From the IMG/VR virus record IMGVR_UViG_3300028591_000070, positions 96,001 through 160,000 of that record: a stretch of DNA of 64,000 bases; one strand, written 5' to 3'. The DNA comes from a virus. Lineage: Duplodnaviria; Caudoviricetes. The position numbers were made by a program, and so were the translations under genes. Of this stretch, positions 1 to 49,000 are shown piece after piece. How positions within the stretch are numbered: the stretch's first letter is position 1; each line of letters starts with the position of its first letter. Below the pieces are notes generated by a model. It searched no databases, was not told where the DNA came from, and worked only from the letters and a program-made list of their open reading frames with translations.

Positions 1-306
1 GGTGATTTTCATGTGCAGATGTACTATTGGGATGATGATGTGAAGGACTATAGAGCATGCATAAAAGAAGCCCACTTTGATGGTAAATATTTCCATCTCT
101 ATGATTTAGATGCTTATGAAGCAGTAAACTGGATTGATGATTGGAGTTATTTTACAACAAATATTAAAACTCCAGTTTGTGAAGGTTGGATAAATGAAGT
201 AAATAAAGGATGGAGAAATCCAAGCCCTTTATGCTGTAAGTTTAATTCAGAAACTAAAAAATATGAAATCATAAAAGAAGATAAACTTAAACTCTTAAAA
301 GAGTAA
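1..306 (+). CDS. hypothetical protein, 5'-partial (frame open from window start)
   Basis: Frame 1 is open from nt 1 to TAA at 304-306 and is followed by a terminator. Confidence 0.7.
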   Translation, partial: GDFHVQMYYWDDDVKDYRACIKEAHFDGKYFHLYDLDAYEAVNWIDDWSYFTTNIKTPVCEGWINEVNKGWRNPSPLCCKFNSETKKYEIIKEDKLKLLKE

Positions 307-338
307 AAAATAAGCCGCTCAATTGAGCGGCTTTATTA
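307..338. terminator. bidirectional intrinsic terminator
   Basis: AAGCCGCTC-AATT-GAGCGGCTT hairpin with A-tract before and T-rich tract after, between convergent genes. Confidence 0.85.
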
Positions 339-776
339 TTAGAAATTATCAGGTACTTGTATTGTTATCAATTCAGAAGCGTCCATGCATTTACCAACTC
401 CTGGGTCACCGGCAATCAACGCGTGGCGCTTATCAGCATGTCCTAAAATAACTGCTTTAACTATATTTTCCATATCTCTGAAAATGAAGTCGGCATCATT
501 TGCAATTTCAGTGGCATCTTCATCCATTAAAGCAGCTAATGCATCAGATGGAGCTTCACCAATATGAGAAGCACCTCCATATAATGGGGCATCAGGTTTT
601 GGAGGAACTGGAGCTTTTGCTTCTTTTATTTTTCTTTCTGGGTCTTTATCAGCATCATAATTTGCAGGATTTTCTTCTGCATTAGGAGCAAAATCATCTA
701 ATCCTATTTCTTTAGGCATCTCTCCTTTTTCAATGCTTGATAAAATATCTAAAAGACTTTCATTTATATATTTCAC
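339..776 (-). CDS. N-terminal fragment of a P-loop (AAA-type) ATPase fused to a 16-aa split-intein N-fragment
   Basis: HALIAGDPGVGK Walker A is followed directly by CMDASELITIQVPDNF-stop (intein block A pattern) instead of T/S; SD GGAG upstream. Confidence 0.75.
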   Translation of the reverse strand: MKYINESLLDILSSIEKGEMPKEIGLDDFAPNAEENPANYDADKDPERKIKEAKAPVPPKPDAPLYGGASHIGEAPSDALAALMDEDATEIANDADFIFRDMENIVKAVILGHADKRHALIAGDPGVGKCMDASELITIQVPDNF

Positions 777-778
777 TT

Positions 779-1216
779 TTACTCTCCTTTAATGCAGTGA
801 AATAATGTATGCTTCTTAAAAGGACCATAACTTTCTGTTAAAACTAAATCCTGAGTAGGATCTTCAGGAGCAGTTAAAGCCGTAATAAATGGACACTTCA
901 ATTCTGATGGATCTGTTGGAGTTGGAACTACAGGAGCTTTAAGGCCTGAATTTACTAATGGTTCTGCAGTATTTAATGAGTATTCAATTGGAGTCTCAGC
1001 CTGAGCAATCAATGAAGCTGGGTCTCTACGATTATAAACTACAACTTCTGCCGGATTAGAAGGCTCAACTGTCTCCTGTTCTTTTTGGAATCCTGGAAGA
1101 ATGTTGCCAATATCCTCTGGAGAAATAAAATATTGAATTACCATTCCCTTTGGAGGAATAAAGTTTATTGCTTTAAGAAAATCTTCTTCGTTTGGTTCTT
1201 GAACTGATATGTACAT
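779..1216 (-). CDS. hypothetical Pro-rich late protein
   Basis: ORF preceded by the ACTAATTA late motif; tightly coupled to 339..776. Confidence 0.7.
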   Translation of the reverse strand: MYISVQEPNEEDFLKAINFIPPKGMVIQYFISPEDIGNILPGFQKEQETVEPSNPAEVVVYNRRDPASLIAQAETPIEYSLNTAEPLVNSGLKAPVVPTPTDPSELKCPFITALTAPEDPTQDLVLTESYGPFKKHTLFHCIKGE

Positions 1217-1219
1217 GTT

Positions 1220-1756
1220 TTAATTAGTAGAATTGCGACGAGATCTTTGTTTTAAGGCTTTGCTAATATTTTCATTGTGTGACTTTGGACGTTTTTTAGC
1301 ATATTCAGAAATAGATTTATTTCTATTTGCAATTACATCTTCATCTAAATGAGACATCGACTCGGCAATTTTATTTCTAACCTCCTTTGCTTTTTCTTCA
1401 CCATATAAAATATCCAATGGTGGTTTATACCACTTAATATAATGTGGTTTTGCTTCTTCAAATTCTTTTGTATAATAAATTCTCAAACTTTTAAATTGAG
1501 GCTTATTATAAATTTGAATAAGCTTATTATAACAATATGTTTGCATTTCGCCATCGCTCTCTTTCGCTTTAAGGTAATATAATCTCAAAGCAATTGCCAA
1601 TGGAACTTCGAAAAAATATAAAAACTTATAGGTCATAGTATTTTCAGGAATAAGACCTATGTTTACGAGACTTTGAGTTTTCCTAAATAACTCGTCAAAG
1701 TTTTCAATTTTATCCAAGTCATTCCATTGAGAAATGAATGAAACATCTATAATCAT
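1220..1756 (-). CDS. homing-endonuclease-like (NUMOD3-type) DNA-binding protein, no recognisable catalytic motif
   Basis: C-terminal LYGEEKAKEVRNKIAES and HNENISKALK resemble NUMOD3-type HEG DNA-binding repeats. Confidence 0.5.
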   Translation of the reverse strand: MIIDVSFISQWNDLDKIENFDELFRKTQSLVNIGLIPENTMTYKFLYFFEVPLAIALRLYYLKAKESDGEMQTYCYNKLIQIYNKPQFKSLRIYYTKEFEEAKPHYIKWYKPPLDILYGEEKAKEVRNKIAESMSHLDEDVIANRNKSISEYAKKRPKSHNENISKALKQRSRRNSTN

Positions 1757-2367
1757 TTTGTGTCATACATCCTTGATGGTGTGAAATATTTTCCTTGATT
1801 ATTATGCTCACAATGTACAAACTTTACTATAGGTTCATCATAAGTAAAATCTGGCGAGCAAAAATAACTAGTATTGAATGATGAACAATGGCCATTAAAT
1901 GAAATCTTTTTATCTGGAATTATTAAGCTAATAGGGTTATCTGCAAAATAATTTCCCATAATCTGATAGTTGAGGCTCTCAAGATTCATGCATAAAACCC
2001 AAGTAAACTTATACTCATTTAATGTTTTAATTATATCAAGTTTTTTAGAAAATGGTGGATTTGATAAAACTAGGTCAACATAGCCAATAGTTTTTATTTT
2101 TTCAAAAAAGTCTCCATCTGGCTCAGAAATGTGAGAATGAATAATTTCTATTTCTTTACCAAATTTTTCTTTTAATGCAATTACAAACTCTGAGTTCTCT
2201 TTATCAAAAGGACACCAAATTCGTGGAATTGGTTTTGTTGGATTCCAATTAGAATAAATTCCATCTATGTAATTTTCTACAAAAGGCATAATTACATCAA
2301 CTAAAATCTTTGGTGTATATAATTCATCATTATCTCTTTTCATTGCATTTCTAATACTTGTTGACAT
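1753..2367 (-). CDS. phage DNA N6-adenine methyltransferase
   Basis: DELYTP, IWCPFD, GDFF and catalytic SNPPFS motifs. Confidence 0.85.
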   Translation of the reverse strand: MSTSIRNAMKRDNDELYTPKILVDVIMPFVENYIDGIYSNWNPTKPIPRIWCPFDKENSEFVIALKEKFGKEIEIIHSHISEPDGDFFEKIKTIGYVDLVLSNPPFSKKLDIIKTLNEYKFTWVLCMNLESLNYQIMGNYFADNPISLIIPDKKISFNGHCSSFNTSYFCSPDFTYDEPIVKFVHCEHNNQGKYFTPSRMYDTK

Positions 2368-13028: not shown

Positions 13029-16000
13029 ATGAATAGTAATTTTGACATTCCAGTTGAAAAATTGAACGAACCTGGAAATCTTTGGATTAGACCTCAAAAC
13101 AAACAGCTTAGATATAGCACAGATGCTGATAAAGCAGCATCTTGGCTCAATCCACTTCCTGTTTATAAAGCAAGCAAAGAAATTAAATTTGGACAGCCTG
13201 TTTCTCTTACAAACTATTCTCAAGAACACAGTATTTCTGAAAGTGGTGCTCGTGCTAGAACTATAATGCCAACAAATGCCTTAGAAAACTCGTCATTTAT
13301 TGGTATCGCTATTGAATATGGTGAAGAAAAGAAAGAAATTCATATCTTAAATCAAGGTGAACTTGTTTATGAAATATCTAAAAAAGATAATCCAAAATAC
13401 TGGTTGCCACCTTATCATAAAAATGGAGATGACTTTGTATTTGATTGGACAGATGCAGATGTAGGTTCAACAGTCTATATCACAAGTAATGGTTCATATA
13501 CCTTAAATGTTGATGATGTTTCAGGTGGAAATATTATGTCAGTGGGTAAACTTGTTTTTGCTCCAAAAGCAACTGAAACTAAAGAAAAACAACAGAAAAT
13601 TATTATTCATATTCAAGCTGGTGGTGATGACAGAGGCGTTAAAGATACAGCACAATTTACTGTTCAAATGTCATCTATTATTAAACCTACTTCAATCGAA
13701 AGTGATTACGACCAACTTATTTTTGTTAAGATAAATAAAGATGGCTTAGGTGAAATTATTTTTAATGATGATGCGATTACAAATGATATAGAGTCTTCTC
13801 CTGTGGGTGCCATCATGGTTAAGTCTGAAGATGGACTTTGTGATCTTACACCTATCATTGGTAAGAAAATTACTTTAGTAAGAATGGGTCTTATTAGTGG
13901 TAATTTTGGTTTTAACACAAATAATGTTGGTAAAATTGGACTCTTAAATGATGGTAGAGTAGCTTTCAAATCAGCTAAAGATTATAGCTTAAAAGTTGGT
14001 CTTTTTAAGTCTTATAGTGGTGATACACAAGACTTCTTAGTAGATTGTAGATTCCCAATGGAAGGAGCAGAGTCTGGTGATAAAATTGGCACAATTAAAC
14101 CTGTTTTTGGCCCATCAGATGATCCTCTTTTAGATATAGGATATGCATTAGTTGATAATGAAATCCATAGAACAACATTTATTAGAAATGACTCAGTTGA
14201 CAAAAGTGGAATAGATTGGGAAGATCTTATTAAAAATTGTTATACAAAAGACATTTTTGAGTTTGGTAGAAAAATAAATGGTAAGTATGTTTTTTCTAGA
14301 GTATTAGAAGAATTTAATGGAAAATCTTGGTCTTTAGATATTTATGATACAGACGAAACAGTTGCAATCTTAAATCCTGAGACTTTCTTTAAGTTCCGCA
14401 ATCTTTATTATACTATTAATTCAGATAATGGAATTAAACAAGTTGCTTGCCAGATTAAGTTTAATCAAGATTCAATAAATACAAATGAAGAATGTATTTG
14501 GCCTGAAGAAGCTTATAAGATTAAATTAAAAGCAACTTCTGATAAAGAAGATTATGTTTTAGGTGGTAAAGGACCTAAATCAACACTATTCTGTAATATT
14601 TCTCGTCTTGTTGCTATTGGAAACTATATGGATGGTAATGGTTCTAATATTGAGACATATGACATCACTGTAAAAGTTCAAAGTACAGGACAAATTCTCG
14701 CCCCAGGTTTTTATCAGAACAAAGATGGTAAATGGTGTGGCTATGAATGGTTTATTTATAGTAACAATGGCTTAACATATCTTTATATGAGTACAATTCC
14801 TTCTGGAGTAGATGCTAAAGATTGTAATGGTATTAACACTATTATTGCTGGAGAAAAACTTACATCTTCAGATCCAGAAGAAACCTTAATTGTTACTGTA
14901 AGAAGACGTCCAACACTTTATAATGCAGTTTATCTCAATCAATATCCAACAAATAATCCATGGATGCCATATGTTGATGGTAATACTGGAAATTTAATTA
15001 CAGAAAATGCTATTTATTTTGGCTCACCTTCTAAGTTATTAAATCAAAATCAAACTGGTGATGAAGATGAAGCTACTTCTGGAATGGAATTTAATGAAGC
15101 TGGAAGAAATGGTAAAATTGAGCTTATAACAGAAGATAGTGGTAAAGTTGTTACTCTTTCAACTCAAGTTAGAGGCTCAACTAATACTCCAACATTTAAG
15201 GATAAAAAACAAGTAATTAAGTCCGATGGTTCGATATCAAATACTATTGAATGGGAATATGATTTTGCTAATAATGTTACATCATTAAATTCATATTTTG
15301 CTCCAATTTTAATTTCTAGAAATTCTAAAAAAGATGAAATTGACCTCGTCCCATTGAGTTATCAATTAAATAATGATATTGTTACTACATCAGACTTTAA
15401 TGAGTATTTACATGACAACAGTATTTCTGCACTTGAAATTTTAGATACTTTCTATTTTAGAAATATTAAATATACAAAGGATGCAAAAAAGTCAACAATA
15501 TCTACTTTATTAGGTGATGATACTGATAATTCAAAAATACTTTTTCCAGAAGTTGATATTCTTGCAAATAATTATTCTATTAATTCTGAAAGTTTATCTG
15601 CTTATAAAGATTTCTTATATGTAGATAATAAATATATTGACTATATGTCTTTCATGAGTTTAATTGGACTTTCTACAAAAGATTTATTTAGTAAGGTTCT
15701 TAGATTAGAAAGAATAGTTAATGGAGTAGATTTTAATAAAAACGTCAATTCTCAAATTGAATATTCTGACAATAGTTTAGATTATATTGATAATATTGGC
15801 CTTTTGAGAACTGCTGGATATTTAAAAAATTCATTAATTTTAATAGACTCATTCAACTTAGACCATTTAGAAACAAATGAAGCTTTATTTCCAGACAATA
15901 ATTATATTTCTATTATTGATCGATATATTATTGAAAATTTTTATCATTATACAAATTCAGATGAATTAAAAACAAGATATATTGATTATAGAGATAAGAG

Positions 16001-19000
16001 CTTCTTTGATAGACTTCAATCTGTATTTAATTATACTCACCAAAAAAATAGTAATGTTGCCCAAATGTATATTGCATTTAATGACCTTGACATGAATGAA
16101 TACTCTTACAGAGTAGGTGACTTTTTTAAATTTCTTAACAATAATAAATATAGTTTATCTCCACAGGACGTTTATGAAGGAAAAACAATTTCTGCAGATA
16201 AAATTGTTTTTAGAAAAAATGTTTTAGGATATGATGCTTTATGCAAAGATAAAAATGGCTATGGCTATGAAGGACTAGTAACAGAACCTGAACCTACTAA
16301 AGATGTATATCAGATTAGTACAGATTCATATAATCCAGAAGAAACTTATTATGAAAATGTAGGTAGTAGAATTTTTGTTGTAAAAAGCTTAAAGGAGGAG
16401 GATTATTCACCTAATAAATATTATATTAAAAGAACTATTGACAATAAATATCAGGGTTATCCATTTAGATGGCCTATTTATAAAGATAGTGCTTTTAATG
16501 AATTAGACGTAGAGTATAATTTCTTTTCTAAGAATACTTATGGATTAGATGACAGTATTGCTATCTATGATGATAACAGAAATAAAACAATAAGTTCATT
16601 TAGTTCACAGTCATTGGAAGGTATTACCTTTGATACCATTTCAAAACTGTCTTTCTTATATTCTTGTTTTGATAATAACCATACTTTTGAATCTCAAATG
16701 ACATGGCTTTTACCATTCTTTGTAGATGATGGTACCGACTTTAAATATGAGCTTAAAAGATTATCTCAAGCTAAATCAATTAAAGCAGAGGATAATAAAA
16801 TATATTCTGCATTTGTTACAAGAGACAATAAGATTATTGAGTTGGGTAGCTTAATTTATAATGCTTATCGATTCATGTTCTTTGAATCTAATGCCTTTAA
16901 TGATACTGATGCATCTTCCATAAATTATGAAAATAAATTTTTAGATTGGAGACAAAGAATTTTAGGTGAAGTAGCTCATAAAAATGGTGTCAAAACATCT
17001 AAATCTATTGACTTTATTTTTGACTTAGGAGATAATAAAACTTATAAATTCTCAATTCTAGATAATATTGAAACTTATAAAAAGTTTATTTTCTTGGTGA
17101 CTCAAGGAAAATTAGCTCGTATAAAGAAAATATTGGAAAATGATCCATATAATGCATATAAAACATATGGCGATTTCTTTAAAAAAGATTATCTTATTAG
17201 TATTGATATTTCCACAAATGAAGGAATAGAAGAGGCTAAGAACTCAATTGCAAATTATCTTTATTCTGGTATCTCAGATGATAAATTAAACTTATTATCT
17301 AAATTTTCTGTCACTCCAGCAACTACAGGCCCAAATGATGAATATAATCAATTAGGATCATATAGTACTATTGTTTCAGAAATAAAGTCCCTTAGATTAG
17401 TTGAAGATGTTACTTTAAGTGAGTTACAAGAGTTTTTTACATTTATAGAATCATTTAATAATCCTTCTTCAGATAGTAGATGGGATAGTTTTGAAATTAT
17501 TGACTATGCTAGAGTAGCAGCATATGGTTCAAAAAATATAGTATATTACAATGAATCAGCATATAAGACATTCAATAATATTCCATCAGAAACAAATTTA
17601 AAATTTAATTTTACTCAAATTTTAAATAAAGCAATTAAAGATAGTAATGACCTTATTGATACTCAAGACACAGCCTCTCTTAAGGTAGTTTGGCCTTCTG
17701 AGATAAATACTTATGGTCAAAAACAAGAAAGTCTTACATTTGCTAAAAATAATATTAATCAATTCATTGATAGAAAAGTATCAGATGATACAACTACTAA
17801 TGGAAATATAGGTATTATAAATATTAAGACAAATCCTGTATCAAGAATTTCAATTATTGACGAAAATAATATTCCAGATATAACTGTTGCAGAATTAAAG
17901 CTATTATTAGAAGGTGATGAAACAATTTGCAATAAATGTGGAATTGATAATAATGAAATTAAAGAATATAATCTTAATATTGAGCCACTGAAAAATGCAA
18001 CATTAGACTGGACAATTCCGGTAGTTACATTGGGTGATGATCAATTTAAGACTTTATTTGAAATCAGAAACTTGCAATATCAGCAAATAAGTGCTTATAA
18101 TAATTCTAATGTAGATGAAGAAATCTTGTCAACAGCTGTAATAGATTATTCTAAAGAAGCCATTATCTATGATTTAATTAAGCAAGGATTAAATTATGAT
18201 ACAGCAAAATTATTTGCTGATGGTATTTTAACTGAAGGCGTAAATATTAGTGGTGGCTTTATCCATAATCCTCAACTCCAGACTACATATGGTCTTTTAA
18301 ATACAGATTTATATGGTGAAGTAAAAGAAGATGGTCATATACAATATGGCTCAAAACTTGAAGGATATATATTACATATATCTTCTAAAGAAGATAAAAA
18401 TATTAATGACTTTAAGTTGAAAGATTTATACAATTATAATAATATTGATCAGTTAATTTTAGCTGCAGAAAAATCAAATTGCGATGTATTATTGCAGAAT
18501 CTTTCAACTATTAAAAATTATATTGAATTATTCTTTAGTCATTGTGATAAGATCTTAAAAGATCTTTCAGTTTCAGGTAAGCAATCTCCTATTGAGATTA
18601 AAGGTACTACTTATATTGATGATTTTGTTGATAGTGAAATTACTAATAAAAACTTTAATGAATTAAAGAAGTCATTAGACTCTATTACAACTATTAAAAA
18701 AGAGATACCTACTGATAGTAATATTACAGGTGTTGATGCATATTCACCAATAGTAAATAGTTATTTTGCAGAATTGGCTAATGACTGCGTAGAAATATTT
18801 AGAAAAATTGCTCATATTTTACAAAATAACTTGAATTTAAGTGAATCTGATGCAAAATTAGTGGCTGATATCGCAAATGCTAGGGTATCACTAGACTTGC
18901 CTACTAATCAGCTTAGAGAATCAATTATAAAAACCGCTATAGAAGTTATTAATAAATCTAATTTTACTTTGGATATGCAAAAACCATCTGATATGGAAGA

Positions 19001-20117
19001 TGTTAAAGTTTCAAAAGCATTTAATTTAGAGAAATATAATAATGAGTATGATAGAGAAAATAATACAGGACTTCAAGTAGAATATTATAAATATAACGAA
19101 CTTTTACCAGAATATAGTTATCTCTATTCAAAGCCATCTGATGGAATTTCTATTAAAAAAGTGGTAGATGCTCAAGAGATTAATGGAAAAATGTATCACA
19201 ATAATATAAATACTATTGTAAAACATAGACCTCTAAATGGTGAGGCAATGCAAAAAGAAACATTTATTGGAGATAAAATTGAACTTAAAGAAGGTATGTA
19301 TCTAAGAGGAGAACAACTTCCATTACCAAGAGTTTCATTAAATATTAGTCCTTACATTCAAAATAATACTCAAAGAATTGAGTTTAAGCCTACATATGAA
19401 GATTATGCAAGTACTTATCGTAATCCAACAGTCCATTATGGAAACAGTTCTCAGAAATGTATTAAACTTATTGGTTCATTCCCAAATATTAAAATCGATG
19501 GTTTTGAATACCATATTCTTGCAATAAGAAAAAATATTTTCACTGGAGATGTTTTTGATAAATTGCCTAATGGACTAAAGATTATACCAGATGTAGAAAT
19601 TAAATACGCTGCAAACTATAAGCAAGAATATACTTCAGAGAGTGGTGAGCCAACTTCCCATAGTGCTACCACAACAGGAGAGTTCTTTATCGAGGGTCCA
19701 AGATTATATAAAAACTATGTTTATAGTATAGCATTATCTAATGTTGGTGAAAATAATACTGTTGCAATTTCTAATAAAAATTCTGTATATGCAGGTATTA
19801 CTGTAAATACTTCATGTTTGGTTGAAAACTATCCAAATGATAATAAATATATAGAGCATTTGAATATAATAAAGAGTACTACAGCTGAAAGAGCTTTACC
19901 TTATGACTTAGACTTATTAAGAGATATTATCTTAAATTCAGATCTTTTTATTTATAAGCCTACTACTAAAGAGGAATATTTAATAGATGCTAAAGATAAT
20001 GTTGTATTACAAGTTGGCAATTATGATATATCTATGCCTTCCAGAACTGAGGTAGTAAATATGTTCAAAGGAAAGATCAAACACGTTTCTGAATGTGATA
20101 TAGAATTTGTGCAATAA
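13029..20117 (+). CDS. giant virion structural protein (tail fibre/baseplate-associated candidate), 2362 aa
   Basis: Late motif at 13017; N-terminal beta-rich ASKEIKFGQPVS...IGIAIE...VGSTVYIT segment typical of phage fibre/cement domains; structural gene context. Confidence 0.55.
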   Translation: MNSNFDIPVEKLNEPGNLWIRPQNKQLRYSTDADKAASWLNPLPVYKASKEIKFGQPVSLTNYSQEHSISESGARARTIMPTNALENSSFIGIAIEYGEEKKEIHILNQGELVYEISKKDNPKYWLPPYHKNGDDFVFDWTDADVGSTVYITSNGSYTLNVDDVSGGNIMSVGKLVFAPKATETKEKQQKIIIHIQAGGDDRGVKDTAQFTVQMSSIIKPTSIESDYDQLIFVKINKDGLGEIIFNDDAITNDIESSPVGAIMVKSEDGLCDLTPIIGKKITLVRMGLISGNFGFNTNNVGKIGLLNDGRVAFKSAKDYSLKVGLFKSYSGDTQDFLVDCRFPMEGAESGDKIGTIKPVFGPSDDPLLDIGYALVDNEIHRTTFIRNDSVDKSGIDWEDLIKNCYTKDIFEFGRKINGKYVFSRVLEEFNGKSWSLDIYDTDETVAILNPETFFKFRNLYYTINSDNGIKQVACQIKFNQDSINTNEECIWPEEAYKIKLKATSDKEDYVLGGKGPKSTLFCNISRLVAIGNYMDGNGSNIETYDITVKVQSTGQILAPGFYQNKDGKWCGYEWFIYSNNGLTYLYMSTIPSGVDAKDCNGINTIIAGEKLTSSDPEETLIVTVRRRPTLYNAVYLNQYPTNNPWMPYVDGNTGNLITENAIYFGSPSKLLNQNQTGDEDEATSGMEFNEAGRNGKIELITEDSGKVVTLSTQVRGSTNTPTFKDKKQVIKSDGSISNTIEWEYDFANNVTSLNSYFAPILISRNSKKDEIDLVPLSYQLNNDIVTTSDFNEYLHDNSISALEILDTFYFRNIKYTKDAKKSTISTLLGDDTDNSKILFPEVDILANNYSINSESLSAYKDFLYVDNKYIDYMSFMSLIGLSTKDLFSKVLRLERIVNGVDFNKNVNSQIEYSDNSLDYIDNIGLLRTAGYLKNSLILIDSFNLDHLETNEALFPDNNYISIIDRYIIENFYHYTNSDELKTRYIDYRDKSFFDRLQSVFNYTHQKNSNVAQMYIAFNDLDMNEYSYRVGDFFKFLNNNKYSLSPQDVYEGKTISADKIVFRKNVLGYDALCKDKNGYGYEGLVTEPEPTKDVYQISTDSYNPEETYYENVGSRIFVVKSLKEEDYSPNKYYIKRTIDNKYQGYPFRWPIYKDSAFNELDVEYNFFSKNTYGLDDSIAIYDDNRNKTISSFSSQSLEGITFDTISKLSFLYSCFDNNHTFESQMTWLLPFFVDDGTDFKYELKRLSQAKSIKAEDNKIYSAFVTRDNKIIELGSLIYNAYRFMFFESNAFNDTDASSINYENKFLDWRQRILGEVAHKNGVKTSKSIDFIFDLGDNKTYKFSILDNIETYKKFIFLVTQGKLARIKKILENDPYNAYKTYGDFFKKDYLISIDISTNEGIEEAKNSIANYLYSGISDDKLNLLSKFSVTPATTGPNDEYNQLGSYSTIVSEIKSLRLVEDVTLSELQEFFTFIESFNNPSSDSRWDSFEIIDYARVAAYGSKNIVYYNESAYKTFNNIPSETNLKFNFTQILNKAIKDSNDLIDTQDTASLKVVWPSEINTYGQKQESLTFAKNNINQFIDRKVSDDTTTNGNIGIINIKTNPVSRISIIDENNIPDITVAELKLLLEGDETICNKCGIDNNEIKEYNLNIEPLKNATLDWTIPVVTLGDDQFKTLFEIRNLQYQQISAYNNSNVDEEILSTAVIDYSKEAIIYDLIKQGLNYDTAKLFADGILTEGVNISGGFIHNPQLQTTYGLLNTDLYGEVKEDGHIQYGSKLEGYILHISSKEDKNINDFKLKDLYNYNNIDQLILAAEKSNCDVLLQNLSTIKNYIELFFSHCDKILKDLSVSGKQSPIEIKGTTYIDDFVDSEITNKNFNELKKSLDSITTIKKEIPTDSNITGVDAYSPIVNSYFAELANDCVEIFRKIAHILQNNLNLSESDAKLVADIANARVSLDLPTNQLRESIIKTAIEVINKSNFTLDMQKPSDMEDVKVSKAFNLEKYNNEYDRENNTGLQVEYYKYNELLPEYSYLYSKPSDGISIKKVVDAQEINGKMYHNNINTIVKHRPLNGEAMQKETFIGDKIELKEGMYLRGEQLPLPRVSLNISPYIQNNTQRIEFKPTYEDYASTYRNPTVHYGNSSQKCIKLIGSFPNIKIDGFEYHILAIRKNIFTGDVFDKLPNGLKIIPDVEIKYAANYKQEYTSESGEPTSHSATTTGEFFIEGPRLYKNYVYSIALSNVGENNTVAISNKNSVYAGITVNTSCLVENYPNDNKYIEHLNIIKSTTAERALPYDLDLLRDIILNSDLFIYKPTTKEEYLIDAKDNVVLQVGNYDISMPSRTEVVNMFKGKIKHVSECDIEFVQ

Positions 20118-23791: not shown

Positions 23792-25147
23792 ATGAGATCA
23801 ACATCAACAATCGATAAGTTGTATGACCAATATAAGCTACAGGACTGGGATATAAATGCTGATAACCTTAATCCAAAAAGAGAAATGCTTATGGGTCAAG
23901 TTAAACAATTGGAAAAAGCAATTCAAAGTTTAACTGACGATATTGTTAGAAAACGAATTACTCCTAAACAAGAAGATATTGAGATGCTTACTACTTCTTT
24001 TGGTGGTGAATCCACAGTTGGTAATTTGGGTAAAACAATTGCTTCAATAAATGCTGGTTCTGATGATGGAACTATATTTGGAGAAGGCTTACCATCTGAT
24101 GTTGAAGAACAAATTGCTTTATTACAGGCTGAGTTAGGACCAGTTGTAATAGATTGTAAAAAGATTTTAAGTAAATATAATTTTGATGTTGCAAGCTCTG
24201 AAGATATTGATGATGAAGATGGTGAGCATACTTATGTTGTGAATACGGATGATATAGACTCATCAAATAGACCTAAAACAAATGATGTTCTTGAGGAACT
24301 CAACTTAGATGGTTTACAAAATGATAATTGTGCCGCAGCAGATCTTACAATCTTAAAAATCTTTATTGCCATATTAAAGATATTTCAGATAATAGTTAAG
24401 ATTTTGCAGTTTCTTCTTGAATTACCAACTATTTTAGCAGAACTTATTGAATTAGCAGCAATGTGTTGGATTAACCCACCATCTATTGCTTTATTGGTTC
24501 AAATTATTTTGGATTTAATTACTTCTTTAATAGTTGCTTTAATTTCAAATCTTATTAAGTTTTTATGGGATTTATTAGGATTAGATTGTATATCACAACA
24601 AGCAACAGATTTATTAGATAATATTCAGGATTTAATTTCAAAGTTTAAGAATACTGCAGCTTTAATTGATATTGGAGCTGTAGGATTTATGTTTGATGGT
24701 ATTTCTACTCAGATTGATAATATTTCTGATTTAATTAAAAAATCTATAAATGATATGAAAGAGGATTGGAATGAGGCGGTCAATAAAGTTAAGGATTACT
24801 TTTCTGAAGAAGGTCTTGAAAATCTAAAAGAAGCAGCAATTGATGCTGCAGTAAATACTTTACAAGATGAATATTCTGAAGCTGTAAATGGAAATACAAA
24901 CGCAACTATAAATAAAGGAATAAATGACGTTACTAGAAGTTTAGCTCATGGTACAATTATTGAAGATGCCAAAAATAAAGCTATACAAAAATATAATGAT
25001 ATGACAAATGCTTATTACTCTGCAATGGAAACGGCTACTTCTACAGTAGACAACCTTAAAGAGTCATTTGCAAGAATGCAAGACTCTACTACAAAATTAG
25101 GTGAGTTAATTTCAGACGTATCACTTGGTGATTTGGAGATAGAATAG
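23792..25147 (+). CDS. virion protein with long hydrophobic helical hairpin
   Basis: ~80-aa Ile/Leu-rich stretch flanked by coiled coils; ACTAAATA motif at 23777. Confidence 0.55.
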   Translation: MRSTSTIDKLYDQYKLQDWDINADNLNPKREMLMGQVKQLEKAIQSLTDDIVRKRITPKQEDIEMLTTSFGGESTVGNLGKTIASINAGSDDGTIFGEGLPSDVEEQIALLQAELGPVVIDCKKILSKYNFDVASSEDIDDEDGEHTYVVNTDDIDSSNRPKTNDVLEELNLDGLQNDNCAAADLTILKIFIAILKIFQIIVKILQFLLELPTILAELIELAAMCWINPPSIALLVQIILDLITSLIVALISNLIKFLWDLLGLDCISQQATDLLDNIQDLISKFKNTAALIDIGAVGFMFDGISTQIDNISDLIKKSINDMKEDWNEAVNKVKDYFSEEGLENLKEAAIDAAVNTLQDEYSEAVNGNTNATINKGINDVTRSLAHGTIIEDAKNKAIQKYNDMTNAYYSAMETATSTVDNLKESFARMQDSTTKLGELISDVSLGDLEIE

Positions 25148-28100
25148 TGGACTACACACAATTTGAAAAACTTTTAACAAATGCAAACATTATAAAAACA
25201 ACTCTCTCAGATACTCCTAGTAATTTATATGATGGAGCAACTTCATTTGAGTCTAAAAGAGCAAACTCAGTAGATAATTATGGCCTTAGTACAAAATTAA
25301 AAGCAGTTTATAGCACATATTTAGATTTAATTAGAGGCCAAAAGAAAACTCATGATACAATTGCTAAATTAGAATCAATTGACCTTTCAAGCACAAATAA
25401 TAATGCTTTATTGGATGATAGCCTATCTCAAGATCAGGTAGCCAAAGAATTTATAGAAGGTGTAGAAGCTCAAAAAGCAAAAGAAATAATTAAACTATAC
25501 TTTTCTCAATACCTTAATAAATTAAATTCAGATATGCAATGGCGTATTGGCCAACCTATTGATAGTATTACTGAGGTAGATGATGCCTTTTTAATTAATG
25601 GAAAATATCCTTCTAGAGGATTCATCATTCCAACTAGAAATGACACAATTTATAATGGAAAAACTTTTCCAAAAGATGATACAAGATTCGTTAGTTATGG
25701 CTTTCCTCCATATAAAGTAGAGCTTGAGAAAAATATTATTGAAGATACAACAGTCACTTCAGATAATCCAGACTCAACTTTTGATTTTAAGGATTACTCA
25801 ATAAATAGAGAAGAATACACTTATCGTGAGATGGGTATGAAAGCCCTTACAAGTTATATCGACTATCTCCAATATCTTACCGAAGGTGCAACAGGTATTG
25901 TTTCAACTTATATCACAGAATGGGATCTTTCAAACTATATGCAAGAAAATCTTATGTCTGTAACTGATAACAATATTGACTTAACCTTAAATTATCGTAT
26001 CAGACAAGATAATCCTTTCTCAGATAGAGAAGAATATCGTGGAGATAAAGCTCTTTGTTTTAATGTTTGTGGTTCTTCTGTTTCTAAGTTGTATCATGAT
26101 AATGAGAAATTATGGCTTCCATCTGATTATGTTTATTCTTCTTGGTGGACTCCATATCTTGAAGGAATTGATTTTAATCTTAAACAACTTAAATTACCTC
26201 AATATGACACATCTATTTCTTATATGGACTGCTATGATAATTTTGACATTTCATATAATTATGACTCACAAACAGATATTTTAAATGTAATTAAACATCA
26301 AGATATATTAAATTCTATTCTTTCTTGTAAAACAAGTTTTACCACAAGATATTATGATGCATTCTATTCTTCATCAGAAGATGCTTTAAGTGATTATGAT
26401 GTTATGCTCGAAGAATACACAAATGAGGCAGCTGGTTCATCATCCTGTAGAGATGTTGCATCTTTAATTCAAGATAGCAAGATTGAAATGCTTTGTGCAG
26501 GTGGGTATGAGAATGCTTTATATTCTGCTGCTTTTTCTCAAGGTGGTTTATTTGGTAAAAGAGCTATTATTAAAGCTCTTGAAAAAAATGGTGAATATAA
26601 AAAGAATGAGCTTATAAATCAAAGTTCTCAAAAAAACTCAGCAGATATTAAGATCTCATCAGATGGAATTATTGATGATTTAATGCATTCTAATAATATG
26701 AATGGAGCAACTTTGGCTAAAATGGATGGTATTTCAAGATTTGCTCCAGCTATTTATGGAGGAAATCATGGTGCTTGTTATTCTCTTAATTCTTTAAGAG
26801 GTCATTTTGATAATACAATCTTAAATCTCAATACACCTACATTAAATTTAACTCCAGCTTCAAATGATTTTTCTAATATGGAAGCCAAATATATAAATAG
26901 TGAATCATTTCAGATTTGTAGATCTCCTACTATGAATAAGAGAATTCTTTTCGATGGTGAACTTCATTATGTTTATCGTTTAGCTTTTAAAATAGTAAAA
27001 ACTACTCAGGAAATAGAGGCGGATATTTTTATCAATAAGTTTGGTAGATATGATTATTCTTTCCCAGTAACTAAAAATGGCAGAGCAGTTGTTTATTCTG
27101 GAAAACAATATACTAAAAGAAAAACATTTAAGGTTGCAGATATTTTAGCAGCTACAAATGAGAAAAAAGAAAAATTAAATTATTATTCTATTTTTAATAA
27201 TAATTCTATTTTAACACCAGATAGATATGACCCAAAACAGAATTATGTTACAATTGAAGTTCCTTGTAAACAAGCAACCTATTTTGATGCTCGATTTGGA
27301 TTAGTAAAATTGCCAATCATAAATGATAATCCAGACATAGAATGGACTATCACTATGCATAAATTTGATGAGTATGCTGCTGATACTCTTTTAAGTGGAT
27401 CATTTTTAAGAACTGTAAAAATTGCTGATAAAACTGCTTTTAGAAGTGATAAATTATCTCATGAAGCTATGTTACAAAATCCAGGATTTATTTTAAGATT
27501 CCCAGGACACCCAGAAAAAGAGCAAGAAGTCATTAGGAATATGATGTGGTATGGAAAAGGCTTAAATAATAATAATCCTATCTATTTATATTTCTTGGAA
27601 GGAAATAAAGAAAAAAGATATACTGAAGGACCAGAAAGTATCATTAAAGCTCCTTGTTACATTAAATATTATGATGCTAAACCTAAAAGAAAATCTATTT
27701 TTAGAAAAATTATAGACTTTTTATTTAATAGAAATAAAGTTGAAAAAACAAATGTTCCTTATATTTATGTAGACTTATTTAATGCTGTACAGTTTTATGA
27801 TGGACTTAATAAAAATATAAATTATGTTCCAGAGAGTGGATTTAAGCCATTGCATACAAGTAGTGATGCATTCTTTAAGAAAGCTAGTACTGAAGCTGTA
27901 AATCCTGTTCAAAAACTCCATAAAATAAACCAGGATATTTTGATCTCACAAAAAGGTTCTGTGTCTATCTCTAATGTAGGATTAGATGGAATTGGTATTC
28001 TTACTGGATTGATTGGATTAAACTCTAAAACTCAGGATCTTATTTCTATAGGTTCTGATAATGTAGCATTAGATAGTGGTTTAGGCGTAGATTATAGCAA

Positions 28101-29682
28101 AGACACTCCATTAGAAGTGCTTCCACTATATACAGCTCATGTTGAAGTTCCTACTTCTTGGTATGCTGAACTTTTTGGTAGAAAATGGATGACTAGCATT
28201 TTAGGTCACCAGGAATATGTTAAACAACCATATGACCCAGGCTTAAGAAAAGCTTATATCAATATGCTGTCAAGAATCACAATGTTTAAGTATGCAGATA
28301 ATAAATATCAGCCATACTTCTTAGATATGAGTGCTCCTTATAGAGTTATCTTGTCAGCATTAATTTCTCATAAGAATTACTTAAAAACTATTCAAGATCT
28401 TTTAGGAAGTTTGGGTGCAGAATATATTCATGACACTTTAGTTTATAATGTTGATAGATGTGTTCTATATGCTTGTGGTATGACATTTGATAAAGAAGGT
28501 TTTTATAAAATTGGCACACCATTTAAGACTCACATTTTCTATAATTATTGGATCGATAAAGCTGTTCATAGCTTTGGAAATATAAATACAGCAAAAACAA
28601 CTGTTAAAAATGTGGTAAATCTTACAAATCAATTTAATACTTTTGCAGATAAATATATTAATACTATGAAACCTATCCTAGAAAAACAATCTAGAGTTTG
28701 GACAATAAATGATATTGAAACAATGAATAAATGCCTCGAAAGTATTAAAGAAACTTTTAATAAAAGAAATGCTTTGGATGATTTCATGATGATGTATTTA
28801 AACATCTTATATTTCTATCGTTTATTCTATATTGGAAATAGATTTAATAAAGTCGATGGTACTATGTGGAGAATGAGACATCTTGAAGCATCATTACATA
28901 TGATAAAACAACCAAATATTATTAAACCAAAATCTCCATCTGAGTTCCAAGTAAAACCTGAAAGACATACCGTTGCTTTCTATGAGGTTCAAAATACTGT
29001 GGCCATGAAAACAAAATCTATTGTTAAGGATGTTGTTTTGGATAAAGATAGAATTTATCGTATTTATGTTAAAGTAGATTATACAAATAAGGAAGCTTAT
29101 GATAAATGGATTCTTTATAAGAATAATCCGGATAACTATGAAAGAGTTCCAGAAGTTGATAGATATTTGGTAAATGGCGAATATAGATATGTTCTAAAAC
29201 CTGCAGATGGTGTTTATCAATTTAGATCTAAGGAATATAATGAGAATGAAGCAAATGTTAAATGGAATTCAAGACATATAAATGACATTCCTAGAAATGT
29301 TTGGAAAGAAAACTTAGATTGTAAGTTTAATATTACATGGCATAACTCAGCTGATAAGACTCCAATTAGATGGAATGTATTAGGAAATATTAATGTTGAT
29401 AATTTACTAGAATATGCTCCAATGGGAATTACAGGTGAGGATTTAGTTTGTTTGATTGAAGAAGGTTCAGATTTCTGGACAATAAATATCCCTGAAGGAT
29501 TGTGGCCAGAAAAATCTCACTATGTTAATAATTTATATATCAAGCAAATATTTGAAAATGAAAAAGAAGATGACCCATCTAAAGATGCTTATGTGTCTAT
29601 TCTTGGACCATTGGCTCATTCAATATCACCTATTATTAAAGAGCCTATGGACGTGAGTCTAAACTTTACAAATAAATTCTAA
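25147..29682 (+). CDS. large hypothetical virion protein, 1511 aa
   Basis: GTG start overlapping the TAG of the previous gene; late cluster. Confidence 0.6.
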   Translation: MDYTQFEKLLTNANIIKTTLSDTPSNLYDGATSFESKRANSVDNYGLSTKLKAVYSTYLDLIRGQKKTHDTIAKLESIDLSSTNNNALLDDSLSQDQVAKEFIEGVEAQKAKEIIKLYFSQYLNKLNSDMQWRIGQPIDSITEVDDAFLINGKYPSRGFIIPTRNDTIYNGKTFPKDDTRFVSYGFPPYKVELEKNIIEDTTVTSDNPDSTFDFKDYSINREEYTYREMGMKALTSYIDYLQYLTEGATGIVSTYITEWDLSNYMQENLMSVTDNNIDLTLNYRIRQDNPFSDREEYRGDKALCFNVCGSSVSKLYHDNEKLWLPSDYVYSSWWTPYLEGIDFNLKQLKLPQYDTSISYMDCYDNFDISYNYDSQTDILNVIKHQDILNSILSCKTSFTTRYYDAFYSSSEDALSDYDVMLEEYTNEAAGSSSCRDVASLIQDSKIEMLCAGGYENALYSAAFSQGGLFGKRAIIKALEKNGEYKKNELINQSSQKNSADIKISSDGIIDDLMHSNNMNGATLAKMDGISRFAPAIYGGNHGACYSLNSLRGHFDNTILNLNTPTLNLTPASNDFSNMEAKYINSESFQICRSPTMNKRILFDGELHYVYRLAFKIVKTTQEIEADIFINKFGRYDYSFPVTKNGRAVVYSGKQYTKRKTFKVADILAATNEKKEKLNYYSIFNNNSILTPDRYDPKQNYVTIEVPCKQATYFDARFGLVKLPIINDNPDIEWTITMHKFDEYAADTLLSGSFLRTVKIADKTAFRSDKLSHEAMLQNPGFILRFPGHPEKEQEVIRNMMWYGKGLNNNNPIYLYFLEGNKEKRYTEGPESIIKAPCYIKYYDAKPKRKSIFRKIIDFLFNRNKVEKTNVPYIYVDLFNAVQFYDGLNKNINYVPESGFKPLHTSSDAFFKKASTEAVNPVQKLHKINQDILISQKGSVSISNVGLDGIGILTGLIGLNSKTQDLISIGSDNVALDSGLGVDYSKDTPLEVLPLYTAHVEVPTSWYAELFGRKWMTSILGHQEYVKQPYDPGLRKAYINMLSRITMFKYADNKYQPYFLDMSAPYRVILSALISHKNYLKTIQDLLGSLGAEYIHDTLVYNVDRCVLYACGMTFDKEGFYKIGTPFKTHIFYNYWIDKAVHSFGNINTAKTTVKNVVNLTNQFNTFADKYINTMKPILEKQSRVWTINDIETMNKCLESIKETFNKRNALDDFMMMYLNILYFYRLFYIGNRFNKVDGTMWRMRHLEASLHMIKQPNIIKPKSPSEFQVKPERHTVAFYEVQNTVAMKTKSIVKDVVLDKDRIYRIYVKVDYTNKEAYDKWILYKNNPDNYERVPEVDRYLVNGEYRYVLKPADGVYQFRSKEYNENEANVKWNSRHINDIPRNVWKENLDCKFNITWHNSADKTPIRWNVLGNINVDNLLEYAPMGITGEDLVCLIEEGSDFWTINIPEGLWPEKSHYVNNLYIKQIFENEKEDDPSKDAYVSILGPLAHSISPIIKEPMDVSLNFTNKF

Positions 29683-43037: not shown

Positions 43038-46000
43038 ATGAAAAAGTTTCAACCTAATAGTGATCTATACAACAATTTTTACGATGGCTACACTTCTTCA
43101 GATGAATTTATAGCCAAAAAAAGAATCCATACAACTAATGAAATTCCTCCTCTTTCAATTTATAAGAATCTCCATTCTATGCTTCAGAGAGATTTCTGGA
43201 AGAACTTAGTTGGCGACACAGAAATTATTTATGATGAGTATTATAATTTAGACACAGATGGAAAAGAAACTTTTGATAGAAATGGTGACATAAAGGAAAT
43301 GTCAGTTGCCAAATATACAAATGGCATTCGTTCCTTAAACTATGGCCCAATCCCTAGATTAGTTTGGAATAAAAACTGGAAAAAAGATTATGAGAATTAT
43401 TTACAACAAGTAGAAGATGGTGAAGCATTTGATGAAGGTAAAACAGCAAATGACTTTAAATATATTGTAGATAATTCTGAAACAAAATATAATCGTTTTG
43501 AAGTAACTGGTGTTTTTGAGCCTCAGAAAGATCTTATGATGCATGAGGCTTATCGCTATTTAAGTTGTATTTATCCAGACCATCCAGATTATTTGAACAT
43601 TCTTACAAAGAATGAATTTGATGATAAAATTGATGACTCAGCTTGTTTAATTGATTATAAGATTGATATTCCTTTTATGGATTGGCTTCCAAAATATTTT
43701 GAATATATTGAAGGAATAAATACACAAATTGCTCAAGAAGATGAAGCTGCAAAATTAAAGATTCGTAACCTTAAAAATTATGCAATGAATAGAAAATTCT
43801 TTGGTGCTAAAGAAGGTTATAAAATGTTTGCGGCATCTGCTTTCCAACATGCATCAATTTACTCAGCTTCTCAATATATTCCATTAGAGGGTGGAAATGT
43901 TTCAAGTTTTGGCACTCCAAAGAATGTTGATATTACTTGGTTTAAGGAGTTTTTTGACCAGCCTGAAGAATTTACAAATAGTGACATAGATAAAGGACAC
44001 TACTTATATAAGAAACTTTTCAGAAATATAGATTGGCAGAACTCTTCTTATGATTTCATAAACAGATATAAAGAGCCAACTCCTTTTTATGGAACAGCAT
44101 ATCCAACTCCAAATTCTCGTTTTGTTTTATATGAATATCCAAATGAAAGAATTATCGATACTTTGGATAAACAGGAAGGAAGATCAACTGATGATCTCTA
44201 TGGAACAATAAGAGCTGATTTCAAAGAAGGTCAGAAAATTAAGGTAAGTGGTCAAAAACAAAATTGGGAAGAAGGCTCGTATAAAGAAGGACATATCTCA
44301 TATATTACAAGCGAAACTTATTATAAAGTTAGAGCTATATTAGGATATAACAAGAGTGGTGATTACATGCCTTCTAAATCTGAATTAGAAGAGCATCATA
44401 TTGATAATGCTATTACAGTTGTAAATGTTGATACTCCATTGCAGCCACTTTACAAAAATTTTAGTGTATATCCTTCAAATGGAAAAATACTTCAGCTTAT
44501 TTCAGACCATGACAATAATCCTGAATTAATAGAACATGATAAGGATTTACCTATTGAAGAAAAATGGGCAATTCATAAGAGTGATGCAGATGTAATGCTT
44601 CCATATTTTCAATCACTTGAAATGGAACAGCCTTTCTATTGTTCAACTATTGTTCTTGAGAATATTTATGGTGATATTAAAGGTGAATTATCAAGATTTA
44701 ATGAGGCTCCTAAAGTAAAAACTGCAAAAATCACATTAGACCCACATCAAGATGGATGCATATTTATTGCCCCACAACAGCAGATTTCTGAATTTGAAGA
44801 GGCCTTAAATATCACATTAAATATAGATAGTTGGTTTGATGAGAATGTAGCAAAACCTGCCTCAAAAATAATTTATGGAACTACAAATCTTTCTGATAAA
44901 GCTTTCTTGAAAGAAGGTGATTATATTGTTTCAGAAGATAAAAAATATATCTCATCTGTTTTAGGATTGTCTAGCGCATTCTTACAATTCAGCTTAACTG
45001 GAAAAGGAACAGACTATGAACTTATAAATAAAAAAGTAGAAGCAATGAATAAAGAAACTACTGCTAGACATGGTGTTGTTTTTGCTTTAAGTGGAAACAA
45101 CCCAGAAGCAGCAGGAAAAAGAGTAATTGTTTTTGGTAAGCCTACTTTTGAAGATGTTACTTCTATGGACAATGATCCAAGAAAATTCTCTTCTAAGGGT
45201 GTTTATTTTGATGTTAAAGCAATTCCTACAACTAAAGACCATGCTCAATTAAGATTTATTTACGGTAGTAGATTTGCTTCTATTGCAGCTCAAAAATATC
45301 AAGATTTAAGACAGTTGTATAAAGATGATTATCTTTCTATTGCTGATGAATATGCTAAAAATCTTTTAGATAATCTTCTTTTGATTGATGAAAGTTTTAA
45401 GGCTTTAGATGAGAGAGTTGAAAAAACTAGAGAGTCTATTAAGAATGAGTCTATTTATTACAATGACTACTCAGCTAAAAAATATGATTATTATATGGAC
45501 ACAACTATTTCTGCTATGCTTCTTCGTAAAGTTTTACAAAAACAAGCAGAAAAAACTTATAAGCCTTATGATGATGAATTAAATGGTAAAATTGATGACC
45601 TTGTAAAAACTTATAGAAATACTTGTAACTATGAACTTACTATGGCTGGTGATACAACTTATGCAAATCTTGAAACAGCTAGAAATATTTATACAGATAG
45701 TTTAGTTGACGCTTGGAATGGTTTCAATAAAGTATTTAATGAGGAATACAATAAGTTTTATAAGGCTATTAGCAATTTAGTAGAAGATGGCACAGATTTA
45801 GAAGCTCCAAAAATTAAAAAGAATCTTGAAAAGAATTATAAGATTGTAAATGAAAAATTAAATATTCTTTATAATGCAATTTTAGATTATACACAAGTTT
45901 ATAATGACTCAAATTGGACAGATATTTCTCAGCCATTAGAAGATCTTCTCGGATGGTTTGATAGATTTAAGGACTCTAGAACTCTTATCAGAGAAGCTTA

Positions 46001-49000
46001 TACTAAACTCTTCAAGGATGGTAAAGATGCAGAACAAATCTATCTTAATAGCTGCATACAGTCTCTTAAAGAGTTTAATGATGTATATTATCCTCAATAT
46101 GTTGAATATACTAAGGCTCTTAATAATTCTGAAAATGATGTTCATGAGGAATTAGAGTCAGTTGAGCATCTTTTCTCAGCAATTTCATATTACTATGATG
46201 AAATTGAAAATACTCTTAATCAAAGAAAAACAGTTACTAAAGATGTAACAGACTCTTTCAAAGATGCATTCTATGACTATACAAACTTTATAATTTCTTC
46301 TTGCGGTAAAGGTTCTTATGACGAAAGAGGAATGGCCGCCTTCAAGAAAGATTATAATAAAAAATTACAAGAATTTATTACACTCGAAATTAAAGCTAAA
46401 GAGGTTGTTAAAAAATATGTAGATGAATACATGACTTGGTTTAGTGAAGAGATTGCAATTTATTTTGATGATGAGCAGTTTTATAGCGATGTTATAGACA
46501 TTAAGAGCTCAGACCCAGAAATTAGAAATCTTTCACTAGATATTCTTGGATGTGATACAGTTTTATTTACTGAAATGCTTCCAAATAAAGCATTCTTATT
46601 AGCTCCTCTTCCTAAAGACCTTTTAATGAGAAAGGAATTAGAAGGAGATTTTAGTTACTCATTACTTACAGACCAAGATTATTTCCAAGATATTGTTTCA
46701 TTCAAGAAAAATGAATTTGATGATTTATTGGAATTAGAAGCAGAAAGTATTTTTGGTAGAAGTGGATTGCTCACAAACTGTAAATCAGTTTCAATGGATG
46801 CTTGGAGTTTTGGTTCAATAAACACAGCAACATTAGCAGAGACTCACTATGATGAGGATATATTTGATTATGTTACTGAAGATGTTGCCTTAAAAACAGA
46901 AGCAGATAAAAACTTCTTAGGTGATTACTATCAGTCTAATAAACCTTGGATAAATGATTATTATATTGATGACCCACAGGCAGCAGAATTAGAAGTTAAA
47001 CAATATAAATATTTTGACTTAAATCAGGATATTTATACTTTAATGAATGATACTGATATGACTCATAAGTTTGCATATTGTGACCCTAATATGCTTGAAA
47101 TGTTCTTAACTGATGAGGATAAGAATAATATTCGTGGTGAGGTATTAAATTTTAATAAAGTAAAAATTAATTGTCATACTGTACAAGATTCAAATGTTGT
47201 TACCTTAGAGGAAAGAGCATCAATTAGAAAATTAGATTATATCACAACAGGATGCCAAGTTATTGGTAAAACTGTAGATGATGATACATATGTAGAAGCA
47301 ATTGACTTAGAAGATCATTCTATAACATTAAATAAGCCAATGCAGATTACAGGTGAATTTGTATTTACATTTTTATGTAAAATTCAATATGAGCCTGATG
47401 ACGTTTCAGAAGACTTCTATAATTATCGTATTGCAGCTTCTAAAAATAAAGAAGTTTCAAATAACTCAATTTTTGAACATGGTGTTATTGATACCTTAAA
47501 TTATGGCGAAATCTCAGATTATATGCTTAGCTCATATATTGATTTTGCTGTATTTAGAGAAGCTCTTACTGATAACTTACAAGAGCAGCCATACTATAAA
47601 GAAAACTTCAATTTGCTTGTAAGAAATTTCTATAATAGATATTTGGGAACAGCTCGTGAGAATGATGTATTTGTTAAGCCATCTATGATTGAGAATGAAG
47701 ATGATATTTTCTTTGAATTAAATGCTTATAACCTTTTAGGTGAAGATTATATCATGAGGCAAGAAATATTAGATTATTTCTATCAGTACTTAGATGAAAT
47801 GACAAAAGCTTCAGATGACATTCATCTAGGTGTTGCTGTAAATGGATATACTCTAAATGATGGAAAAGTTTTCCATGGTGATAGCGCATTCTCAGATAAA
47901 AACATTCATGCTAAGTTTATAACTACTGATGACTGGAAGGATTATGAGCCATTCTATATTAAGATTGGTTGTGGTTGTATTCCAGGTATTTTTGATGAAA
48001 AAGAAATTGTAGACCACGATGAGAATGATGAACTTGTAGGAAGATCACTTTATAATGAACATGATGACCCTTATGGTTCTGCTCTTTATAATGGTTCACA
48101 AGTAGAAGTACAAGATAATACTCAAAGAAAACATTATTATGATATTGGTGACCCTGTATTTAAGGCTCGTTTAGGTGAATATGAAATTCAGAAAAATATC
48201 ATGTTTAATGATTTCTCATCTGATAGAGTATTTAATACTATCCAATTCTCAGTTATGAAAAGAATCATCGACTCATTTGTTGATGATAACACAATTACTA
48301 TTGCGAACTCAACAGTTTCAAACTGGAATGGATTACAAACATGGCCTAAAAACTGTTATACAATAGATGATCTTTATATTATGGGTGAAAATGGGGAAGC
48401 AGCTGAACTTAAAGATATAAACTTCTTAGGTGAATGGTCTCCTAAAATTGAAAATGATGAGATTGTTTTCCCAGAAAAGCCATTATATGACAATGTATTA
48501 AATTATTATGTAATTACAAATAATTATAGCTTCATTGTAGATGAGAAAGAGGTTAATTATAAGCCTGGACAGATTATTATCTGGGAAAATGACAAATGGA
48601 TTGTTAAAACATTCTATGCTGCTGGATTTATTGGTGATTCATATTCTGCAGCAAAATATATCACAGGTAAATATGAAGATGAGGCTATCACAACAGGTTC
48701 AAATCTTATCATTACTGAAACAACAGATTTTAGAGCAGTTATTCTTTATAAGGTTTTAAATTCTATTGGATGCTATACTAATATTGCCACTGCAGCAAAT
48801 TATGGTTACTCTAAATTATTAGAGCTTTATCAAAATGCTTTAGCATTCTTCAAAGAAGAAAAAACAATAGATGAAGTAAATGAATCAGTATATCCTATTG
48901 AATTAGACCCAACCTGTAAAAATACTTTTGATGAGAATACTTGTTATTGGTTTGAATACATTGGATATGATGCCGATTTTGCGGATGCTTTGGCAAATAG

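Follow-up and report, generated by a model that had tools for sequence, protein, structure and literature searches.

The 145-residue open reading frame at positions 339 to 776 of the window, the 64,000-nucleotide stretch of virus DNA analysed here, very probably encodes the N-terminal half of an AAA ATPase of a jumbo phage, a protein broken between the GK and the T of its P-loop by a naturally, atypically split intein of class 1 type. The first-pass annotation had put forward a candidate atypically split intein in Walker A, and that reading now draws support from a partner gene elsewhere in the genome, from the HINT fold predicted for the C-terminal intein fragment (IntC), from conserved catalytic residues and from the uninterrupted junction in intein-free relatives. 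The window spans bases 96001-160000 of its virus record, which is 385,934 bp long, and carries mostly small genes, few of them with a known family. The record is 100% complete by CheckV and has a GC content of ~31%; its size, GC content and gut provenance are compatible with the 'Jug' jumbo phages of Bacteroides and Phocaeicola gut hosts. Many introns and putative inteins have been reported in the 'Jug' gut jumbo phages (PMC12880540).

The N-half gene and its host ATPase

The extein portion of the N half comprises an N-terminal domain and Walker A as far as its lysine (GDPGVGK), and the protein ends in ...HALIAGDPGVGK-CMDASELITIQVPDNF-stop, in which (A)GDPGVGK is followed by Cys and 15 further residues (Table 1). 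The cysteine codon directly after the Walker A lysine is where the first-pass annotation had placed it, and the other details given there are correct as well. The end of the gene likewise abuts a bidirectional terminator and a convergent gene as described there: a hairpin separates the N-half gene from a convergent open reading frame, 13-306(+), that ends six bases before the hairpin. Searches of the N half against Pfam and PHROGs gave sub-threshold P-loop matches only, and no match came from a tblastn search of GenBank phages.

Intein-free homologues of the ATPase pass the Pfam AAA model PF00004 across the split site with 23.7-25.8 bits against a cut-off of 21.2, while the N and C halves each stay below the threshold alone, in keeping with an AAA domain divided between them. 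Over the two halves together, Walker A (GDPGVGK-T) and Walker B (VIVLDD) are both present. The ATPase falls in phrog_1250 of PHROGs, whose function is not annotated, and a profile of the intein-free ATPases, run against the PDB, finds only weak P-loop matches, to RFC and Cdc6 (E ~0.005-0.05), clamp-loader subunits among them.

Elsewhere in the window, the same leftward gene string that holds the N half includes a 204-residue open reading frame, 1753-2367(-), with an L-S-N-P-P-F sequence that resembles motif IV of N6-adenine or N4-cytosine DNA methyltransferases. Very long open reading frames lie at 13029-20117(+), 25147-29682(+) and 43038-56333(+), encoding 2362, 1511 and 4431 residues, respectively.

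A single partner gene on the same strand

No partner half is present in the window, as had been noted, and the proposal that an IntC-ATPase half lies elsewhere is borne out by the rest of the genome. The whole genome has 1865 open frames of 50 residues or more; when these were scanned for His-Asn-[Ser/Thr/Cys] followed by Walker B, exactly one matched, G000:C1:340127-341515(-), equivalent to L003:5128-6516(-). Its product begins MKTITLSIGELF, carries the block B His within A-G-E-H and has VYGFSIDSEKHLY as block F. IntC closes with G-M-I-H-H-N at residues 137-142, after which the sequence runs T-Y-T-V-T-E-T-L-K-K-Y, with the Walker B motif 43 residues later. The HINT-fragment gene that had been predicted, with a ~100-140 aa fragment, a TxxH block B, a terminal HN, Thr or Ser and Walker B, is thus recognisable in a 142-residue IntC, an HHN end, a Thr and a Walker B, the block B itself reading A-G-E-H.

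Profile searches of all open reading frames of the genome agree with the motif scan, returning a single match each for the N half (E 6e-91), IntC (E 4e-72) and the C-extein (E 3e-143), and no intact ATPase paralogue. Each intein fragment is fused to one extein in its own gene, and the two genes, each unique in the genome, lie on the same strand 243,351 bp (243 kb) apart. Since the ATPase exists only as these two genes, its assembly probably depends on protein trans-splicing. Neither half adjoins an endonuclease detectable by Pfam. The Pfam intein models PF14890 and PF13403 have no match in the whole genome, so both miss this intein.

The C-half gene lacks a visible Shine-Dalgarno sequence and starts 29 bases past a terminator hairpin (L003:6517-6563 = G000:C1:341516-341562); set against the strong AGGAG of the N half, this raises the possibility that the two halves differ in translation efficiency. 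Immediately upstream of the C half, the gene L003:6591-7259(-) weakly matches sigma-70 region 4 (PF08281, E 0.002, below the cut-off) and may encode a sigma-like factor of the phage.

Table 1 Features of the two half genes and IntN tail lengths among distant N halves. Positions are those of the window unless prefixed with C1.
Feature	Position	Strand	Description
N-half ORF	339-776 (C1:96339-96776)	-	145 aa, GTG start
N-extein	390..776	-	Residues 1-129 of the putative split AAA ATPase; aligns with the N-terminus and P-loop of intein-free P0047-P0065
IntN	342..389	-	16 residues, Cys1 first (codon 389-387); conserved in aligned homologues
Stop codon	339..341	-	Directly after IntN; from sequence and alignment
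Bidirectional intrinsic terminator hairpin	312..333	.	9 pairs, 6 of them G-C; T-runs on both strands
Shine-Dalgarno AGGAG	784..788	-	Precedes the GTG by seven bases and falls within the 3' end of the preceding ORF 779-1216(-)
C-half gene	G000:C1:340127-341515	-	462 aa: 142-aa IntC, Thr+1 and a 319-aa remainder
Distant IntN tail, 19 aa			P0072
Distant IntN tails, 24-25 aa			P0069, P0067
Distant IntN tails, 28-29 aa			P0068, P0070, P0073, P0076, P0077, P0080, P0085, P0087
Distant IntN tail, 32 aa			P0071
Distant IntN tail, 37 aa			P0089

Predicted fold of IntC

IntC was modelled alone (142 aa) with 20 homologues as the alignment, and the resulting model has a mean pLDDT of 90.8. Every one of the top matches listed by Foldseek against the PDB is an intein or a HINT domain, led by the Pyrococcus horikoshii (Pho) RadA intein (E 1e-6, TM ~0.7); the matches listed also include VidaL, Cat, PolB16, gp41-1 and Npu DnaE. 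In the VIA comparison 75 chains reach Z >= 8, and the best 50 of these 75 are all inteins or HINT domains; the best inteins score Z 13.1-13.4, with Cat at 12.4 and VidaL at 12.3. In nearly every VIA row residues 1-3 of the model pair with residues 12-14 of the solved intein (20 in its own numbering for the VidaL structure 6vgv), and the alignment continues to the last residue. The model therefore suggests that IntC is a HINT domain lacking only beta1-beta2, the first 12-13 residues, which the 16-residue IntN would supply. A break after beta2 together with a 16-residue IntN corresponds to the S1 split site as defined previously (PMC13014065).

At the level of sequence the relationship is far more distant. 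A phmmer search of the C half against PDB sequences gave no match, and the profile search of PDB sequences gave a sole match, to the Cat IntC at E 0.7, which, like the silence of the two Pfam intein models, we count against the split-intein reading; structure-based identity to the known atypically split inteins is 13-22% by Foldseek and VIA.

Conservation of the 16-residue tail

Searches with the N half recover 26 clusters of homologues (68-98% identity; contigs as long as 389 kb), in which a protein of the same length ends in the same tail. In an alignment of the window protein with 16 homologues at 69-97% identity, GK-Cys is kept in 17 of the 17 sequences and C130, I137, T138, V141, P142 and F145 are invariant; the 16-residue tail ends at one column in all but one of the 17, and P0021 departs from the other aligned N halves by a shorter N-terminus only. 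Conservation of GKC and of the tail across the 17 aligned sequences is more than would be expected by chance.

These observations bear on whether the gene is a functionless truncated remnant or pseudogene, or an artefact of assembly at about position 340. The open reading frame alone does have Walker A only and no significant Pfam match, and with the N half as query no homologue exceeds 254 aa, which speaks for a remnant. The same truncated architecture is nonetheless repeated in dozens of independently assembled sequences, a recurrence that is our sole ground for arguing against misassembly, and it is common to distant N halves as well; the gene has a strong Shine-Dalgarno sequence and a terminator directly after its stop codon, and a unique matching C half resides in the same genome. 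On this recurrence, the unique C half and the expression signals we rejected a pseudogene or misassembly, which we regard as highly improbable.

Catalytic residues and the proposed splicing reaction

Cys1 of the intein (C130 of the N half), invariant among the aligned homologues, is either Cys or Ser in distant N halves. Among 20 split homologues of the C half, ranging down to 37% identity, no variation is seen at H74 of block B, H130 of block F, the terminal N142 or Thr+1, and at least 90% retain the penultimate H141. Two positions deviate from the usual pattern. In the TxxH motif of block B, the position of the Thr is Ala or Gly in all members (A-G-E-H in the phage protein), while H74 is retained, and block F has Gly (VYGFS) in place of the usual Asp. 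Thr+1 is moreover a weaker nucleophile than Cys or Ser. We count the Ala or Gly in block B, the Gly in block F and the Thr+1 against splicing competence, and the conserved Cys1, block B His, terminal His-Asn and Thr+1 make trans-splicing likely. On balance, the split element looks likely to be splicing-competent as judged by its residues.

In the reaction that we propose, the short IntN strand would dock after translation on a pre-folded IntC and so complete the HINT fold, Cys1 would form the thioester, and the N-extein would then be passed to Thr+1. Cyclisation of the terminal Asn would release a 449-residue ATPase with an intact GDPGVGKT P-loop.

The deviating residues of blocks B and F could also mean that the intein fragments act as a non-covalent clasp, holding the halves together as a heterodimeric ATPase with a HINT domain in its P-loop and no splicing. 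All class 1 splicing residues (Cys1 or Ser1, the block B His, the penultimate His, the terminal Asn and Thr+1) are, however, conserved down to 37% identity, whereas dead inteins normally lose them, and a 158-residue domain between the Walker A Lys and the Thr would disrupt a P-loop that is kept intact in intein-free relatives. A clasp of this kind thus appears unlikely, and trans-splicing to a continuous ATPase is the reading that we follow below.

Split, intein-free and contiguous relatives

Searches with the C half return three types of protein: split forms, intein-free forms and one contiguous intein form. About 20 C-half homologues share the split, close ones at 77-95% identity and distant ones down to 37% in the alignment or 31% by BLAST. 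The split C halves all start at one point (MK-E/T-ITL-x-IG), and nearly all retain HHN followed by T. By sequence comparison, the split is old and widespread across the relatives.

The intein-free homologues P0047-P0065 (564-617 aa) read ...DKRHA-x-IAGDPGIGK-TYTV... without interruption. The N half aligns with these forms up to the K and the C half from the T after HHN, such that GK joined to TYTV reproduces at the junction the GDPGIGKTYTV of P0047-P0065 and of loci L005-L009. The first-pass annotation had named contiguous homologues natively carrying GKC as evidence against an intein; the contiguous ones read GK-T or GK-S, never GKC. In IMG/VR, the C-half alignment retrieved one split locus and five intein-free ones, and related-locus searches begun from the C half alone or from the N-half alignment gave no match. 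The N half was not found on the 40.8-kb fragment that carries the L004 split C half, a record too incomplete (13%) for the absence to be informative.

The exactness of this junction, GK to T at the protein level, also bears on a rejoining of the halves at the RNA level, by intron trans-splicing, or on ribosomal bypass or readthrough. Many group I introns are carried by gut Jug phages of a like size class (PMC12880540), which lends RNA-level rejoining some plausibility. The halves, however, lie 243 kb from each other, the intein fragment in each is protein-coding, with a HINT fold and signs of purifying selection, and the N-half stop codon directly precedes a terminator and a convergent gene. 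The spacing, the coding HINT fragments, the terminator and the exact protein junction led us to reject RNA-level rejoining, the chances of which we put as close to nil.

The contiguous form, P0036 (770 aa, a protein of the SRC catalogue), has a 177-residue intein at the same GK-T site with Ser as its first residue, and the 16-residue IntN is homologous to the start of this intein. P0036 is contiguous in a protein-level assembly, which is how the SRC catalogue was built, so its contiguity is provisional at the DNA level. The model of P0036 has a mean pLDDT of 72.5 and matches full inteins with a TM of up to 0.74 on the target; inside the intein it has one low-confidence loop, 246-250, at the place where the relatives are split.

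Comparison with known inteins

A 16-residue IntN is not unprecedented. Natural atypically split inteins are known with an IntN of 15-37 residues (PMC13014065, PMC11766414, PMC10189870), and the phage fragment equals that of VidaL in length and is one residue longer than that of PolB16. VidaL (PDB 6vgv; Neugebauer 2017 and Burton 2020, as cited in PMC13014065), with its 16-residue IntN, S1 split and Cys1-dependent splicing, is similar to the phage intein in its split after beta2, IntN length and Cys1, and superposes with Z 12.3 and an rmsd of 2.5 over 119 residues. The two are not close sequence relatives, having 18% structure-based identity, and 6vgv was found by neither phmmer nor the profile search of the PDB, consistent with no recognisable sequence similarity. 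The phage intein further differs from VidaL in having Thr+1, in sitting in the Walker A of an AAA ATPase and in having both halves mapped, 243 kb apart, in a single complete genome of 386 kb; the splicing half-time of VidaL is ~1 min, whereas splicing of the phage intein is predicted. PolB16 OarG (PDB 8cpo/8cpn), from a sheep gut metagenome, shares the natural atypical S1 split, with a 15-residue IntN (PMC10189870), and matches in Foldseek at E 4e-4, more weakly than other inteins do (TM ~0.5). It is cysteine-less, with Ser1, and its host is a PolB polymerase, in contrast to the Cys1, Thr+1 and ATPase P-loop of the phage intein.

The AceL-TerL, GOS-TerL and consensus Cat-TerL inteins (PDB 6dsl; PMC11766414) are likewise phage-derived, naturally split inteins, with an IntN of 25-37 residues (25 in AceL-TerL and 37 in GOS-TerL; PMC13014065, PMC11766414) and a long, partly pre-folded IntC. 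The Cat IntC is the only sequence-level match to the phage-intein profile in the PDB and superposes with Z 12.4. The TerL inteins differ in their S2 split after helix alpha1, their Cys+1 and their location in terminase, as opposed to the S1 split found here, and relatives of the phage intein with tails of 24-37 residues add a helix and come near the TerL inteins in length. The 'fractured genes' inteins gp41-1, NrdJ-1 and IMPDH-1 (Dassa et al. 2009, as cited in PMC13014065) similarly rejoin phage or metagenomic genes by trans-splicing. They are described there as canonically split, with an IntN of ~100 residues and with halves adjacent around a free-standing homing endonuclease, whereas the phage halves are far apart and have no adjacent endonuclease by Pfam.

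Among the best structural matches is the Pho RadA mini-intein (PDB 4e2t, 2lqm), which aligns over 136 of 142 residues with Z 13.1 and 21% identity. This mini-intein also sits in the P-loop of its ATPase host; it is contiguous, cis-splicing and archaeal, and the phage intein is split.

Judged on these comparisons, the phage inteins evidently represent a new family within a known kind, that of naturally, atypically split inteins, with negligible sequence similarity to the known members. No paper on a split intein of this ATPase or of jumbo phages from the gut came up in a literature search of incomplete coverage. Split inteins with a short IntN are sought for protein semisynthesis and labelling, in which proteins are joined to synthetic peptides, and few natural ones, VidaL, PolB16, AceL-TerL and GOS-TerL among them, have an IntN short enough for peptide synthesis. 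The 16-residue IntN ties as second-shortest known, and dozens of natural variants, including forms with Ser1 or an added helix, could be mined for faster or orthogonal tools. The phage genome also adds a case in which both split-intein halves are mapped in one complete genome. The value as a tool is real; the conceptual novelty is moderate.

The wider family of N halves

A search of 1.84 billion representative proteins with the N-half profile brought up many distant N halves, 131-407 aa long, in which GDPG[VI]GK is followed by Cys or Ser, a tail of 19-37 residues and a stop (Table 1). The distant tails follow the pattern of the 16-residue tail up to V-x-D-N, and the longer ones add a helix-like segment (e.g., I-A-K-E-L-E-S-F); the 16-residue form is the shortest IntN within the family. 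A tentative reading, to which we give somewhat less than an even chance, is that these proteins constitute a large undescribed family in the P-loop of a jumbo-phage ATPase, with an IntN length series of 16, 19, 24-29, 32 and 37 residues, the extra helix having been lost in the 16-residue form, and with P0073, P0080 and P0087 as members of Ser1/Thr+1 type.

These three are the Ser-first N halves, with an IntN of 28-29 residues. Paired with Thr+1, they could be candidates for cysteine-independent splicing. If the Ser1 members are active and have no catalytic cysteines, they would add to the natural cysteine-less inteins with an atypical split, of which PolB16 alone is listed (PMC13014065).

A different element appears in P0091 (264 aa), in which GSPGCGK is followed by N-L-S-N-T-S-K-L-L-L-S-D-N-S-W-G-T-I and then by at least 170 residues. 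This insert looks like a different, longer intein-like element in the same place of the P-loop, its first residue being Asn instead of the expected Cys1 or Ser1.
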